Shown: positions 18,619 to 32,570 of the stretch, one piece after another | Numbering within the stretch: position 1 is the first letter of the stretch | How the letters are laid out: the number at the start of each line of letters is the position of its first letter | Origin: Candidatus Latescibacterota bacterium | Lineage (GTDB): Bacteria; Latescibacterota; UBA2968; UBA8231 | Assembly (NCBI GenBank): GCA_965261395.1 | Contig: OZ253462.1 | Location: forward strand, 782,889-846,888 | Direction: 5' to 3' | Length of the DNA: 64,000 nt | The notes under the pieces: model-generated | What the model was told of the DNA's origin: nothing | Databases searched by the model: none | Seen by the model: the letters and a program-made list of their open reading frames with translations, nothing else | Translations under genes and position numbers: made by a program

Positions 18619-18977
18619 TACTCAACCCTCCCAGGGAAAGCGTCCCTGATTAAAAGTGAGATAAGAAGATGAATCTGCTTTAAGATATTGCGTTCGTGCG
18701 TGTTTCATCGGTAGTGCATTCGTTTGAAATTAAGGTGCGCCACTCCGCTTTACGATGAGTCCTAAGAAACTGTTGAGTTATTAGATGCCTTTAGCGACGG
18801 TACCCCTTACTTAATAATGGCGATACAAATCATGTTCTCCGCGGAACCACCTGGTTCCGTTGGAGTTGACCTGACTTGTGGATTGCCTCGGTTAGAGGCA
18901 CGGCTCCACCTGCCTCCGATAAATATACGTTCCAAGCGGTCAGGGAATGTCCGTTGGTCAAAAAAATTCAAATATTA

Positions 18978-25094: not shown

Positions 25095-25274
25095 AATCCC
25101 TCCTTTGTACGGGAAGCAGCTAGTTTTTATGCCGCTCTCTATGCAGAATTAAAACGCCGCGTCAAGTTATGGTGCTAGCCTGAGTTGGGACAGCGTCGCT
25201 TGCAATCTGCATGGCCAATTATCGTTATTCGTTACCAGCATATTGATCCTCTCTACAGCAAAAAGGCCCGCCTC

Positions 25275-29195: not shown

Positions 29196-29432
29196 ATGGA
29201 CAATCGAATTACTATTGATCCTCAAGTGTATCACGGCCAAGCCTGCATTAAGGGGACTCGCCTTCCCGTGCATCAAATCCTCCGGATGCTCGCCAACGGG
29301 GATACCATCGAAGACCTACTTCAAGAATATCCTTCTCTAACATGGGAAGATATCCTCGCTTGCTTCGACTATGCAGCCTCACTGGCTGAAGAGCAAATGG
29401 CCCCTCTTGAAGTTCTCTCGGGCGAGGTATGA
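29196..29432 (+). CDS. DUF433-family antitoxin-like protein
   Basis: AGGAGG at 29183-29188. MDNRITIDPQVYHGQACIKGTRLPVHQILRMLANGDTIEDLLQEYPSLTWEDILACFDYA matches the DUF433 pattern. Confidence 0.8.
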   Translation: MDNRITIDPQVYHGQACIKGTRLPVHQILRMLANGDTIEDLLQEYPSLTWEDILACFDYAASLAEEQMAPLEVLSGEV

Positions 29433-29539
29433 AGATCTTGGTCGATGAGCACATCCCCCTCATGACGGTCCAAGCCTTGCCTATGATGGGGCATGACGTC
29501 CGCGAAAAAGACGCAGAGAAAAGACGCAGGAACGACTAG
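29429..29539 (+). pseudogene. truncated DUF5615/PIN-like toxin (36 codons)
   Basis: ATGA overlap with the DUF433 gene. MKILVDEHIPLMTVQALPMMGHDVRE matches the N-terminus of DUF5615 toxins, but the ORF stops after 36 aa (TAG 29537-29539). Confidence 0.55.
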
Positions 29540-29548
29540 GGATCAGAC

Positions 29549-29701
29549 CTATACGCATAGCCGAGCTCGCCGCGATGTGGTCTTTGCTCTGTTGGTTGGG
29601 TGTTTTTCCAACCGCTGTTCCACTCGGTCAATCACCTCGTGAATAACCGTGTGAGCCAGTTGGTTTGTGTCGCGTGATCTTTTGGGCTTATTCTTGGACA
29701 T
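29549..29701 (-). CDS. possible small basic protein (50 aa)
   Basis: MSKNKPKRSRDTNQLAHTVIHEV... The basic N-terminus followed by a DxNQLA motif resembles small proteins often seen near TA loci. It is below the ORF-track size cutoff. Confidence 0.3.
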   Translation of the reverse strand: MSKNKPKRSRDTNQLAHTVIHEVIDRVEQRLEKHPTNRAKTTSRRARLCV

Positions 29702-29760
29702 GCTATAAATATGGGTAGTGTCCCAACACCAAGTAAGCAGATTTCACAGGGAAGACTTAA

Positions 29761-30024
29761 ATGTATCTAAGCGACCTATTGGATGCTCTCGATAATGGTA
29801 AGCCTATTGAACTGTCAAGACGTGAACTCATCGAGATTTTTCAAAAGCAGAAGCCCTTAAATGACAGCCAACGTCTCGCCTTGTTCCATAGATTGGAACT
29901 CCGCGACCGAGACCGAGAGTGGCCCTTTGAGAAAGAACGCCTGACACAAAAAGAGGTAGCAGAGAAAACAGGTGTATCTCTTGAACTTGTGAAACAGTAT
30001 GACGCTGGAAATCTGTCCGTCTAA
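29761..30024 (+). CDS. small HTH-containing protein
   Basis: 87 aa. LTQKEVAEKTGVSLELVKQY looks like a helix-turn-helix. Lies in the low-GC islet. Confidence 0.5.
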   Translation: MYLSDLLDALDNGKPIELSRRELIEIFQKQKPLNDSQRLALFHRLELRDRDREWPFEKERLTQKEVAEKTGVSLELVKQYDAGNLSV

Positions 30025-30122
30025 AAGGTTGGCAACCCGTTTAATGGCATCAAGTATATAATTCCCATTTCAAAATAGGCGACTACCAGGAAATCTTAAA
30101 GCCCATAGAGAGGAAGAACCAC

Positions 30123-30341
30123 ATGAACAGAAAAGATTTTGATGCTTGTGCCTGTGAATTGTCTGATAGGGTTGGGGAGATTCGAATGGAGGTAAGTAAA
30201 CTTGCCAAGAAGGCGCGTAATACCTCCTTAGAGGGAGCAGTGGGTTTAGATCCGGCTGCCGCCCTAGACGAACTGGATGAATTACTAGAGGAGGTCGCTA
30301 ACTCCTTGTACGTGACCTTCAAAACCGAAGACGAAATGTAA
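30123..30341 (+). CDS. hypothetical small acidic protein
   Basis: 72-aa ORF with an AGAGAGG-type Shine-Dalgarno sequence upstream. The antisense 95-aa ORF is low-complexity and less likely. Confidence 0.4.
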   Translation: MNRKDFDACACELSDRVGEIRMEVSKLAKKARNTSLEGAVGLDPAAALDELDELLEEVANSLYVTFKTEDEM

Positions 30342-30363
30342 AACCCATAACTTATCATTCCGG

Positions 30364-30413
30364 ATTTCAAAATAGACCACTACCTCAAAATAGGTAGTGG
30401 TCTATTTTGAAAT
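30364..30413. repeat. perfect inverted repeat (22-bp arms, 6-nt loop) built from the islet motif
   Basis: ATTTCAAAATAGACCACTACCT - CAAAAT - AGGTAGTGGTCTATTTTGAAAT, located 23 bp after the stop of 30123..30341. Confidence 0.9.
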
Positions 30414-30637
30414 TGGGCATAGTCGCTGGCCACGTCTTTATTGAGCCGCGCCGGGGCCGGTGGCCTCCCCTGAGCCTTGCTCGGCTGCTGGCTGCCGGTC
30501 GCCGCGATCGCGGCCGCTGAAAGTCAAAGAGAGACACTACCAAAAAAGGAGACCGCAACGCAATTAGCCGATCCTCGAACGAATTTCAAAAAGGATTAGA
30601 CCTGTGGCTATACTTCAGGCACACAAGGAGAGTTCAA

Positions 30638-31012
30638 ATGAACTACGAAGATATTATCCAAGACTTGAGCGAGTATGTCGAGCGATTTGATTGCAAGAAG
30701 CAATACAAGCGGAGGAAAACAATACTTCAAATATATCGACTATTAGACAATAGACCTTCGGGCGGCGATTTCCGAAGGCAGTGGGGTTGGGAAGTAGTAG
30801 GGGAAATTCGCCAAGCTGGTAAAGGTCCGGCAACGATTGTGAACGTAACCCCTGACGCACCGCACTACATAAAGTCGCTGGAAGGCGATACCCAAGAAAA
30901 CTTCCCCATACTCCAGAACAAAATCCGTTGTAAAGCGTTTCGGCACGAAGCCAAAAAAGTGTTCAGAAACTATTTGTCAGCCGAGATAAAACAGCTTGAA
31001 GATGACGGCTAA
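30638..31012 (+). CDS. hypothetical protein
   Basis: 124-aa ORF with AAGGAG 8 nt upstream of the ATG. No recognisable family. Confidence 0.5.
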   Translation: MNYEDIIQDLSEYVERFDCKKQYKRRKTILQIYRLLDNRPSGGDFRRQWGWEVVGEIRQAGKGPATIVNVTPDAPHYIKSLEGDTQENFPILQNKIRCKAFRHEAKKVFRNYLSAEIKQLEDDG

Positions 31013-31080
31013 TCAGGCAGGCAGATTTCAAATAGACCACCCATAACTTGACGCGTCATCTCACAACCGGAGGCAATGCT

Positions 31081-31629
31081 ATGAAGATCGCCAGTTACGT
31101 CCTGTTGGGCCTTTTATCTTGCGTCGAGGTCTTGGCCGGAGAGACCGCCTTTGATAGAGCCGTTGAAGCCTATCGGACCTACAAGAAAGCCCAGCACGCC
31201 TATTTTGAAGCCATCGACGCCCACGAAGAAACTAGGCTGGCTTGGGATGCTTATTGGGCCACAGACCGAGCCGATGACGAAGCCCATAAGAAAGCCGAGG
31301 CCGCTTGGGAGGAAGCCAGAGACACAAATAAAGAAGTCAAAGGCGCCTATGCGATTTTTAGTATAACCGGAAAAGCTGCTTTTGAAGCCGTAGACGCGAT
31401 TGAAGAAGTCAAGCTAGCCCTTGCCGCTTTTGATGAAGCCGAACGCGCCGTTGAAGACGCTCAAGATGCTTGGTTTAACGCCAAAGGCCCCCGTGAAGCC
31501 TATTATTTGACCGCCCTCAATGAAGCCCATGCCGCCCTTGATGAAGCCAGCGACACCTACCTTGCAGTCAGGGAAGTCTTTGATGAAGCCATCAAAAAAG
31601 CCTACGAGAGGGGCGAAAAAAACCATTGA
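31081..31629 (+). CDS. secreted alpha-helical repeat protein
   Basis: Start trimmed to ATG 31081 (GGAGG at 31069-31073). Signal peptide MKIASYVLLGLLSCVEVLAG, then repetitive A/E/D/K-rich helices (AYxxFEAIDA..., FEAVDAIEE..., ALDEASDTY...). Confidence 0.6.
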   Translation: MKIASYVLLGLLSCVEVLAGETAFDRAVEAYRTYKKAQHAYFEAIDAHEETRLAWDAYWATDRADDEAHKKAEAAWEEARDTNKEVKGAYAIFSITGKAAFEAVDAIEEVKLALAAFDEAERAVEDAQDAWFNAKGPREAYYLTALNEAHAALDEASDTYLAVREVFDEAIKKAYERGEKNH

Positions 31630-31654
31630 TAAGGCTTGCTGACCCAGTTCCGAT

Positions 31655-31683
31655 CCCCCTTGGCAAGAACCGTGCCAAGGGGG
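31655..31683 (+). terminator. stem-loop after the secreted-protein gene
   Basis: CCCCCTTGGCA - AGAACCG - TGCCAAGGGGG (11-bp perfect stem), followed by CTGATTTT. Confidence 0.55.
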
Positions 31684-31781
31684 CTGATTTTCGCAGCTTA
31701 TTTCAAACTGACCCAGTTCCGAATGAAAAATAAAAAGGCCGCCGTGTAAGGGCGGGTCCCATCGTTAGTCCACTAGCTGGC

Positions 31782-32570
31782 CTATTCGCCCTCCAGCGCC
31801 CGCCGCATCGCATCGCCTTGATCGCGCCAATACCCGTACAGCACGGCTATATCCGTGCCAACGCAGAAGTGCCGCACCCCCATGTCGAGAAAGCGCTTGG
31901 CATCGTCGGCTGTGTTGATCTCGGCGCGCGGGTGGACGCCCATCTCCAAGGCCGTCTTAAAGACCTTCTCTTCGGCTGCGGCAATTTCCGGTGCGCCGCG
32001 CTGGCCGGCCTTGCCGACGCTCATGGAGTAATCGGCCCCTCCCCACTGGACCATCTCGACTCCTTCTACCGAGAGCATGGCTTCTAGGTCGGCGACGGCA
32101 GTTTTCTTTTCAATCATCAAAACCACGACCACGTCGCGCAGGGCTTGGACGTACTCCGGGGTACCGCCATAGCTCATATAGGCGAAGCGCCGCATGGCTA
32201 CCCCATAGGTGCCTTCGTCCCCGGGCGCGTCGGCGCGCACGCAGCGCACACAGGCCCGCGCGTCGTCTGGGTCGCGCACATCGGCAAACAGTACGCTGCC
32301 GAAGCCCGACCCTATGGCCCGTTGGGCCACATAAGCGCGGTTCTCGGCATCGACCTTGATCATCGTTCCCAAATCCCATAGCTCGGCGGCTCGGGCGAGG
32401 TTGTCCAAGTCGTGCAGGTCGAAGGGGGCGTACTCGGCGACAAATTCCACATAGTCGTACGCGCCGGTATGCCCTAGTGCTTCGACGACCGAAGGCCAAG
32501 TGGTGTGGATGTGGGTAGCGAGTGTCGGCTCGCCGGCATTGAGCTTTTCGCGCAGCTTGTTGGGTCTCAT
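31782..32570 (-). CDS. HpcH/HpaI-family aldolase
   Basis: Start trimmed to ATG 32568-32570 (MRPNKLREKLNAGEPTLATH). DYVEFVAEYAPF, VLMIEKKTAVADLEAMLSVEGVEMVQWGGADYS. Confidence 0.85.
   Translation of the reverse strand: MRPNKLREKLNAGEPTLATHIHTTWPSVVEALGHTGAYDYVEFVAEYAPFDLHDLDNLARAAELWDLGTMIKVDAENRAYVAQRAIGSGFGSVLFADVRDPDDARACVRCVRADAPGDEGTYGVAMRRFAYMSYGGTPEYVQALRDVVVVLMIEKKTAVADLEAMLSVEGVEMVQWGGADYSMSVGKAGQRGAPEIAAAEEKVFKTALEMGVHPRAEINTADDAKRFLDMGVRHFCVGTDIAVLYGYWRDQGDAMRRALEGE

Follow-up and report, generated by a model that had tools for sequence, protein, structure and literature searches.

Repeated motifs in an A+T-rich islet between two aldolase genes are very probably the ends of IS1-family elements and their cassettes

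The 64,000-nt stretch of DNA analysed here (the window) contains, at about nt 29507–31726, an islet of reduced G+C content (0.43–0.53, against 0.60–0.66 outside) with an HpcH aldolase gene on either side, both features being as described in the initial annotation. Host DNA gives way to the islet at nt 29506/29507, within a DUF5615 toxin-like gene (nt 29429–29539, plus strand) that is truncated after 26 native codons. Its product matches positions 1–26 of the 110 positions of Pfam DUF5615, while its last 11 codons derive from the 3' terminus of a gene for a small membrane protein, found on a 404-bp miniature element in the relative G022. Homology to the flanks of relatives stops at nt 29505 and begins again at nt 31727, about where host DNA resumes. 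No transposase was found in the islet, either in the ORF listing or by tblastn with the transposases of element D and L026 (see below), and an Rfam scan of nt 29300–31900 returned sub-threshold hairpin noise only.

The first part of the islet (nt 29507–29746) is a patchwork of IS-cargo fragments, with homology to elements in the same genome and in relatives. Nucleotides 29507–29624 are a miniature-element remnant, of which nt 29507–29623 match L021 and L022 at about 91%, and nt 29549–29701 (minus strand) hold the first part of a small basic ORF, with its divergent upstream region. The same ORF is found upstream of the transposase in L026, an autonomous element of a relative. Homology of the patchwork to element A (88%) ends within a partial copy of the repeated motif, GCAGATTTCA.

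Four small ORFs follow, all on the plus strand. ORF1 (nt 29761–30024) codes for a helix-turn-helix protein, 87 aa long, whose orphan family is tiny; the helix-turn-helix label had been given to it earlier, and its Pfam matches (Sigma70_r4 and HTH) are all sub-threshold. It has eight clusters of homologues, and elsewhere these lie directly downstream of a tyrosine integrase (Phage_integrase) gene, with no motif copies nearby (contexts L041–L044). A 189-aa neighbour of ORF3 in L039 was considered as a relative of ORF1 and proved unrelated on comparison. ORF2 (nt 30123–30341, 72 aa) is an orphan: in a search of 1.84 billion representatives it has one credible cluster of homologues (P0054, 68 aa, E 3e-6), and a further match spans just 18 residues. 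ORF3 (nt 30638–31012, 124 aa), of an orphan family, and ORF4 (nt 31081–31629), encoding a secreted all-helical protein of 182 aa, have seventeen and twenty-eight homologue clusters, respectively. Their AlphaFold models, both confident (pLDDT 85 and 88.6), gave no fold relative in the PDB below E 0.1 when searched with Foldseek, and none of the islet ORFs has a Pfam or PHROG match above threshold, so that the description of ORFs 2–4 as lacking a recognisable family stands. ORF3, ORF4 and the small basic ORF turn up again as cargo of elements A, B, L023 and L025, in varying order; ORF3 precedes ORF4 in the islet and follows it in B. Nucleotides 30541–31040, which include ORF3, share 90% identity with the terminal part of an IS-bounded element of 5.8 kb in G006. 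Seven copies of ORF4 occur in 5 of 31 genomes of the genus, four of them in IS-bounded elements and a fifth in the solo-end array of the islet.

Direct reading of the window bore out the motif copies on which attention had originally been focused. They are found at nt 30067–30087 (ATTTCAAAATAGGCGACTACC, plus strand), 56 nt before the ATG at 30123; at nt 30364–30384 (the perfect form, ATTTCAAAATAGACCACTACC), with its reverse complement at nt 30393–30413; at nt 30583 (ATTTCAAAAAGGATTAGACC), 55 nt before the ATG at 30638; and at nt 31025 (ATTTCAAATAGACCAC), 56 nt before the ATG at 31081. The last had been placed at 31024 with a spacing of 57 nt; the copy is real, and its position and spacing were each one base off. 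Two weak copies, previously put at 29741 and 31698, exist at 29742 (ATTTCA only, merely 19 nt before the ATG of ORF1) and 31700 (ATTTCAAACTGACCCAGTTCC). The motif is enriched when scored statistically: as a 17-mer with up to three mismatches it has 3 matches in the window against 0.05 expected, and ATTTCAAA, with 236 copies in the genome, is present 6 times in the 2.2 kb of the islet, where that density predicts 0.08. A positional constraint upstream of genes is not seen, the genome-wide histogram of distances from ATTTCAAA to gene starts having no peak at 50–60 nt; TTGACA peaks at 60–80 nt.

The nature of the motif is best seen at other loci. Inverted pairs elsewhere in this genome bound elements of 1.2, 2.2 and 17.2 kb, with exact 8-bp target duplications: element A (nt 2999609–3001797, duplication GCTGTTTG), element B (nt 4579586–4580816, CCGAGACA) and element C (nt 6399066–6416306, CAATTTCA). 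A fourth, element D (nt 3615699–3620155, TACCATTC), carries a transposase. Exact 8-bp duplications also flank four elements of relatives (L024, L025, L027, L028); none was found at L021 or L026. Uninterrupted empty sites with a single copy of the target were recovered for A, in a paralogous gene, and for B, in three relatives. The outer end reads GGTAGTGGTCTATTTTGAAAT in what is here called type A and GGTAGTGTCTCAGTTTGAAAT in a sister type, type D, and every complete element starts with GGTAGTG and finishes with CACTACC. Against PF03400 (DDE_Tnp_IS1, cut-off 24.1 bits), the transposases of D and L026 score 43.0 and 33.0 bits. Each is encoded by one ORF without interruption, of 260 aa in D and 281 aa in L026, and overlapping insA/insB' frames with a programmed frameshift are present in neither intact copy, which puts the two elements in the single-ORF branch of the IS1 family and not in IS1 proper. 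The signature of the family is ends of the form GGnnnTG with repeats of 8–9 bp (ISfinder data in PMC10425158, Table 8), and the elements that own the motif combine such ends and a duplication in this range with an IS1-type DDE transposase. The motif copies of the islet differ by 0–2 mismatches from the ends of L026, which is 2.7 kb long, has an intact IS1-type transposase and already carries passenger genes.

In this genome itself, tblastn with both transposases detected no cognate type-A transposase, only C-terminal remnants and one type-D transposase, 43% identical. Within a sample of 41 relatives, the ends occur in 14 of 24 other genomes of the same genus, including as 79-bp MITEs with duplications, and in none of 16 genomes of other families; type-D ends are present in 22 of 31 genomes of the genus, this one included. 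Taken together, it is very probable that the motif forms the terminal inverted repeats of an insertion sequence of the IS1 family, and that the islet has accumulated from miniature elements and cassettes without a transposase, with small orphan genes as cargo. The transposase would recognise the ends and insert the element, duplicating 8 bp of the target, and the family has given rise to many non-autonomous derivatives, namely MITEs of 79 and 149 bp and transposase-less cassettes (mobile insertion cassettes, MICs) of 0.4–6 kb with lineage-specific small genes. One of the original suggestions, that the repeats are cassette boundaries, was essentially right: the copies are IS1-family ends that bound, now or formerly, transposase-less cargo.

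Read as transposon ends, the copies on the plus strand of the islet are as follows. The repeat at nt 30067–30087 is a solo right end of type A with two mismatches, fused directly to the ORF1 cassette, and that at nt 30364–30384 is a perfect solo right end of the same type. At nt 30583–30603, upstream of ORF3, lies a degenerate end-like motif (ATTTCAAAA followed by 5 nt and TAGACC) that is kept in the G006 element, and nt 31025–31042, directly after ORF3, are a type-A right end that lacks 1 nt and is truncated at its outer tip; at this repeat, homology to the G006 element terminates. The islet closes with the right-end module of a type-D element (nt 31655–31720, 78% identical to the right end of D), made up of a terminator-like hairpin detected by a terminator scan (nt 31655–31683) and a decayed type-D right end, ATTTCAAACTGACCCAGTTCC, at nt 31700–31720 (aligned with L073–L076). 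Parental IS ends are thus present without a transposase, and only one left end survives (nt 30393), the other units having solo right ends. Target duplications were looked for around the islet units and none was recognisable. Since paired inverted ends with a duplication are absent, the islet holds remnants rather than intact cassettes, of which A, B and L025 are examples. Two short direct repeats noted previously are both exact, CCCATAACTT at nt 30344 and 31040 and CTGACCCAGTTCCGA at nt 31639 and 31708. The second copy of CTGACCCAGTTCCGA is the decayed tip of the type-D right end plus 2 nt. CCCATAACTT was considered as the 10-bp duplication of a composite insertion; the enclosed segment, however, has no IS end at its start.

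The perfect palindrome reported at nt 30364–30413 is confirmed, with 22-nt arms and a 6-nt loop (DNA fold −23.1 kcal/mol, z = −10.9). Its left arm is the perfect solo right end, and its right arm is the left end (nt 30393–30413) of a 149-bp miniature element (nt 30393–30541) whose right end, AAGTCAAAGAGAGACACTACC, lies at nt 30521–30541. The two adjoining ends are 8 bp apart, and the flanks of the 149-bp element, TCAAAATA and AAAAAAGG, are not a duplication. Homology to another copy in the same genome stops exactly at ...CACTACC, and the right half of the element is dispersed across the genus. In the sister strains, as aligned for L036 and L037, the left end of this element is of type D (GGTAGTGTCTCAGTTTGAAAT) and agrees with the right end in 17 of 21 positions; in the present genome a 5-nt patch makes it identical to the adjoining type-A end. 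None of the three sister strains has a perfect palindrome. It would have arisen when the miniature element inserted 8 bp from the solo right end, its arms having probably been equalised later, in this genome, by a templated 5-nt patch (gene conversion).

Sister strains differ further in left-side deletions, which span nt 29625–29956 in L036 and L038 and nt 29446–29735 in L037. The former two have lost most of ORF1 and kept all motif copies. The 3' end of ORF1 and the right end at nt 30067–30087 are also found together in G008, where ORF3 comes next and not ORF2. Homology of the islet to cargo elements stops exactly at the repeats. The islet is best viewed as a probable nest of IS derivatives in a variable, A+T-rich spot between two convergent aldolase genes, in which four cargo genes are each followed by a right end, with no transposase and with all left ends but one missing. 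The most economical history would be that new elements landed time and again in resident ones or next to them, and that left-side deletions came afterwards, an order of events that is reconstructed and in which loss of the other left ends is assumed.

The near-constant spacing between motif and start codon had been taken to argue for a common promoter or operator, or else for cassette boundaries. The spacings of 55, 56 and 56 nt do agree better than random placement predicts, with nominal p values of about 0.04 for two agreeing within 1 nt and about 0.0025 for three within a 3-nt span, so that some constraint is possible, although these values are post hoc, come from a simple placement model and, for the third spacing, depend on the degenerate copy at 30583. 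One explanation, which we regard as unlikely, is that IS ends have been co-opted in the islet, the solo right ends supplying an outward −35-like TTCAAA or other signal that forms a hybrid promoter for the gene some 35 nt on; selection for expression would then explain the spacing. That IS ends can form hybrid promoters is known (PMC3129680 mentions it), and the only sigma-70-like site found on the plus strand of the islet, which is also the only one to involve the motif, uses its TTCAAA as −35, with TATACT 18 nt downstream (nt 30609–30614), ahead of ORF3; the TATACT/TATAAT element is kept in ORF3 leaders. However, no acceptable −10 lies at the right distance from the motif before ORF2 or ORF4, and the promoter scan as a whole gave 2 sites against 1.7 expected in shuffles, so the total is not above background. 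In the syntenic islet of the relative G008, the repeat is 6 nt nearer to ORF3 (50 nt), leaving a 14-nt spacer to TATAAT, and in A, B and L025 the spacing is 42–45 nt. Homologues of ORF3 and ORF4 elsewhere have unrelated upstream DNA, in one case with a good TTGACT-N17-TATTTT: the motif is absent upstream of ORF3 homologues in L039 and L040 (the closest, at 92% identity), B and L031, and of ORF4 homologues outside IS-bounded elements (L032 and L033). A shared promoter is not supported. The simplest account of the roughly 35 nt between IS tip and next ATG would be tight packing, the sole non-coding, A+T-rich DNA between cassettes being perhaps the short promoter and leader ahead of each gene; with this, a design function is unnecessary.

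A broader proposal, that the IS1-type ends serve as portable boundaries of a cassette-shuffling system, appears improbable. Carriers would exchange members of a small pool of orphan genes (ORFs 1–4, the small membrane protein and the small basic ORF) through recombination within the inner half of the repeat, GCAGATTTCAAA, and the solo right ends about 35 nt upstream would act as outward expression signals, in an integron-like gene capture by the end of a DDE transposon. Against the reading as plain transposon ends, several homology breakpoints lie in the motif's inner half (GCAGATTTCA) and not at the outer tip cut by the transposase.

It is very unlikely that the ORF1 protein binds the motif as the dedicated operator or promoter element of a regulon in the islet, with the palindrome as high-affinity site, despite the weak helix-turn-helix signals in ORF1, the strong enrichment of the motif in the islet and the plausibility of a perfect 22-bp palindrome as a dimer-binding site. 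Throughout the genome and the genus the motif bounds mobile elements that show target duplications and occupy unrelated loci without ORF1, and it is neither conserved upstream of orthologues nor positionally constrained, as a regulon site should be. The ORF1 homologues beside a tyrosine integrase lack nearby copies, L036 and L038 retain every copy with most of ORF1 gone, and the palindrome is imperfect in every sister strain. Least probable of all are attC-like sites at which a recombinase, not a DDE transposase, exchanges cassettes, since for all that cargo order varies (ORF3–ORF4 against ORF4–ORF3 in B, ORF1–ORF2 against ORF1–ORF3 in G008), breakpoints fall at the motif's inner half and ORF1 relatives adjoin a tyrosine integrase elsewhere, no integrase-like ORF is among those listed for 27.5–34 kb, the copies when read directly show neither an attC core (GTTRRRY) nor an imperfect-hairpin layout, complete elements have the inverted ends and 8-bp duplication that are the signature of DDE transposition, and autonomous copies themselves encode an IS1-type transposase.

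The preferred reading, IS1-family ends bounding cargo, can be set against known systems. The elements resemble the IS1 family (E. coli IS1 and the single-ORF relatives in ISfinder) in their DDE_Tnp_IS1 transposase, GGnnnTG ends (here GGTAGTG), 8-bp duplications and a transposase gene that runs into the right inverted repeat. Canonical IS1 has the InsA/InsAB' frameshift arrangement, whereas here the transposase is a single ORF of 260–281 aa; the autonomous copy is, at 2.7 kb, furnished with passenger genes, the host belongs to the Gemmatimonadota, and there are at least two end sub-types. MIC231 of the Bacillus cereus group exemplifies the mobile insertion cassettes or transporter IS. With this class (mentioned in PMC3129680) the cassettes share IS-type inverted ends, target duplications, lack of a transposase, passenger genes unrelated to transposition and, presumably, mobilisation in trans. 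Unlike MIC231, the parent is of the IS1 and not the IS231 type and the cargo consists of recurring tiny orphan genes, and those in the islet are stacked, each reduced to a gene and a right end. Like IS-derived MITEs, the elements of 79 and 149 bp are little beyond two ends, some with a terminator-like hairpin (L075, L076 and the 31655–31720 module), but the islet copy abuts the solo end of another element, giving the 50-bp palindrome. Integron arrays likewise present a row of small, promoter-poor orphan genes in one direction, each followed by a repeated site of an imperfectly palindromic family; they differ in that neither an integron integrase (ORFs of 27.5–34 kb) nor attC cores (RYYYAAC/GTTRRRY) are found here, and that the repeat marks the end of a transposon, which has target duplications and a transposase of its own.

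The islet is an ordinary kind of mobile-DNA debris, and leaves the understanding of such elements unchanged. For annotation, it means that an apparent regulon signature is transposon debris, and that the four small genes are to be regarded as cargo of IS elements, not as a co-regulated operon. The gap between the two aldolase genes is a strain-variable insertion hot spot. The case also documents, in a genus of Gemmatimonadota, an IS1-type family with two end sub-types that spans autonomous copies of 2.7–4.5 kb, miniature elements of 79–149 bp, cargo cassettes and one 17-kb element, and whose members bear the same handful of orphan genes again and again, one of them for a secreted helical protein without known relatives by fold.

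When the motif was searched for across the whole genome (the window is part of a single 6.55-Mb contig), the 21-mer was found outside the islet as inverted pairs bounding discrete elements (GGTAGTGGTCTATTTTGAAAT ... ATTTCAAAATAGACCACTACC), in every case with 8 bp of flanking DNA exactly duplicated in direct orientation. Element A is 2189 bp long with the target duplication GCTGTTTG, and element B 1231 bp with CCGAGACA; empty sites are seen for both, that of A in a paralogous gene with a single GCTGTTTG and that of B as a single CCGAGAC(G) in three relatives. Neither has a complete transposase, only a C-terminal remnant. Element D (4.5 kb; ends GGTAGTGTCGCAGTTTGAAAT, target duplication TACCATTC) encodes a 260-aa product matching Pfam DDE_Tnp_IS1 at 43 bits (cut-off 24.1). 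The 2.7-kb copy L026, in a relative, is autonomous: its ends are perfect and its 281-aa IS1-type transposase is intact, with a stop codon that falls inside the right repeat. According to the ISfinder data tabulated in PMC10425158, the IS1 family is characterized by a DDE enzyme, GGnnnTG ends and 8-9-bp repeats, and the motif-bearing elements match on enzyme, ends and repeat length. They differ from canonical IS1 in that the two-frame transposase of the latter was not found, while the other IS1-family features tested were present.

Among a sample of 41 relatives, the same ends occur in 14 of 24 other genomes of the genus; the 16 sampled from other families of the class had none. Copies in the genus, besides L026, include a 974-bp cassette, elements of 404 bp, 2.5 kb and 5.8 kb, and miniature elements of 79 bp that show 8-bp duplications. 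The type-D end, one of at least two sub-types, is present in 22/31 genus genomes, including the one studied here. Element C (G000:C1:6399066-6416306, 17.2 kb, outside the window; ends GGTAGTGGGCTATTTTGAAAT, exact 8-bp target duplication CAATTTCA) is without an IS1 transposase. Besides insertions of the IS630- and IS5-like types, it carries a 1276-aa SNF2-type helicase-like ORF and a T9SS-tailed protein of 746 aa, and it may be an IS1-bounded cargo transposon of unusually great length. A third end variant, GGTAGTGCATTCGTTTGAAAT, is represented by a solo IS1-type left end at nt 18710-18730 of the window, adjoining the region of an IS30-split adhesin gene.

The motif copies that the initial annotation described in the islet are all present, at 30067, 30364, 30393 (reverse strand), 30583, 31025, 29742 and 31700, as is the low G+C content (0.43-0.53 vs 0.60-0.66 in the flanks). 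The motif is indeed enriched: a 17-mer has three matches in the window against 0.05 expected by chance, and ATTTCAAA, for which the density across the genome predicts 0.08 copies in 2.2 kb, has six. From left to right, the islet begins with fragments of a miniature element and of the A-type small-ORF region (29507-29746), followed by ORF1 (29761-30024), fused directly to a right end (30067-30087), and ORF2 (30123-30341), with a right end (30364-30384) 8 bp before the next unit. This is a 149-bp miniature element (30393-30541) with its own right end, AAGTCAAAGAGAGACACTACC. A degenerate end-like motif at 30583 precedes ORF3 (30638-31012) and its right end (31025-31042), in a stretch 90% identical to an element end in G006, the homology stopping at the repeat. 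Last comes ORF4 (31081-31629), with a hairpin and a decayed type-D right end (31655-31720). Every islet gene thus has a right end behind it, and this is the same pattern as a right end before the next gene. In several cases homology breaks off at the motif's inner half (GCAGATTTCA), not at the end cleaved by a transposase. No target duplications were found around the units and only one left end survives, so what is left are remnants, and not intact copies, of mobile insertion cassettes and MITEs.

Both short direct repeats reported for the islet (CCCATAACTT and CTGACCCAGTTCCGA) have exact copies. The 15-bp CTGACCCAGTTCCGA (31639-31653 and 31708-31722) brackets the hairpin plus the decayed right end's inner half; its second copy consists of the tip of this end and 2 further nt, and one may ask whether the first arose by slippage or partial duplication. 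The hairpin itself (31655-31683) is the one that follows the element D transposase; it is GC-rich and terminator-like, and also lies between two IS1-type ends in ~100-bp elements of two relatives (G021:C1:4635880-4636140, L075; G020:C13:57040-57300, L076). An exact 15-mer, CCATAACTTGACGCG, is common to the ORF4 leader (31041-31055) and the region upstream of an unrelated minus-strand gene (25158-25172, minus strand), and may be part of a shared promoter, AACTT...TCTGC being similar to ECF-type sites, or else a scar left by recombination.

The palindrome, with arms of 22 nt as originally described, has outward-facing arms 8 bp apart, and is therefore formed by one unit's right tip and the left tip of the unit after it. 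The three sister strains all have GGTAGTGTCTCAGTTTGAAAT as their right arm, so the perfect palindrome is private to the studied genome; 17/21 positions of this sister-strain arm pair with the right end of the same miniature element. In the studied genome, where background divergence is 2.4%, five clustered changes have brought the right arm into identity with its neighbour. Most simply, the perfect palindrome would be a templated patch, not a designed operator.

The constant spacing from motif start to ATG holds within the islet (56, 55 and 56 nt; tip to ATG, 34-38 nt). If motifs were placed at random in the three gaps, agreement of two distances would have p ~0.04 and of all three p ~0.0025; these values are post hoc, and the third distance uses the degenerate copy. 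Elsewhere the spacing differs, with 50 nt in G008 and, where a partial motif precedes ORF4 (A, B and L025, the last a locus in a relative), 42-45 nt, and genome-wide the distance of ATTTCAAA to gene starts has no preferred value, whereas that of TTGACA does. We take the islet spacing to result from packing: between cassettes there is no non-coding DNA other than a short AT-rich promoter and leader, and the target duplications of this family are AT-leaning. Local co-option of an IS end as a promoter part is a live, minor rival, since at ORF3 the TTCAAA of the motif could serve as a -35 hexamer. No motif copy precedes ORF3 (92% identical) in L039 and L040, nor ORF4 in L032 and L033, the latter two having a TTGACT-N17-TATTTT promoter in its place. 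A shared promoter or operator, as initially proposed, fails the defining tests of a regulon. An integron was likewise rejected on its defining tests.

As cargo, elements A and B carry homologues of three islet genes, ORF3, ORF4 and the small ORF on the minus strand (29549-29701), in varying gene order, and the set recurs at L023 and L025. ORF4 has seven copies in only 5/31 genus genomes, four of them inside IS-bounded elements; the window copy lies in the islet's array of solo ends. All four families are tiny and unnamed (homologue clusters: ORF4 28, ORF3 17, ORF1 8, ORF2 one credible), and the confident structure models of ORF3 (pLDDT 85) and ORF4 (pLDDT 88.6) gave no significant match in a fold search against the PDB. 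ORF1 is mobile-element baggage itself, because its homologues elsewhere sit directly downstream of a tyrosine integrase: at L041-L044 (ENA ERZ26694896, ERZ25071132), 81-aa homologues lie directly 3' of a 396-aa integrase and are followed by a 67-aa HicB/DUF7387-like gene. The protein may serve an integrative element as a regulator or in an excisionase-like role.

Host DNA stops at 29506, within a DUF5615 gene (26 codons left), and restarts at ~31727. In the relative G013 (L029, G013:C142:78700-86000) this gene is cut at the same base (29505/29506) with other DNA downstream, so the junction is older than the islet, or was reused. Past the breakpoint, G013 has an IS, a methylase fragment and a pair of large genes of P-loop GTPase-like type (573 and 792 aa), a pair present in G003 (L030) as well. 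In sister strain contig L037 (1983-2127; ENA ERZ25069191), a 145-bp miniature element of another family, with perfect 16-bp ends GAAGCCGTCTGAAAAC, splits a DUF433 gene. The islet would have been built by repeated insertion of elements into or beside residents of an AT-rich spot, with their left-hand parts then lost. This history is supported by three sister-strain contigs, 97.5% identical, that share the islet with different left-side deletions; by a shorter syntenic islet in G008, with ORF3 in place of ORF2 after the ORF1-end unit; and by G013 and G003, where unrelated genes fill the aldolase-aldolase gap. This stretch between the two paralogous aldolase genes is a hot spot that varies from strain to strain.
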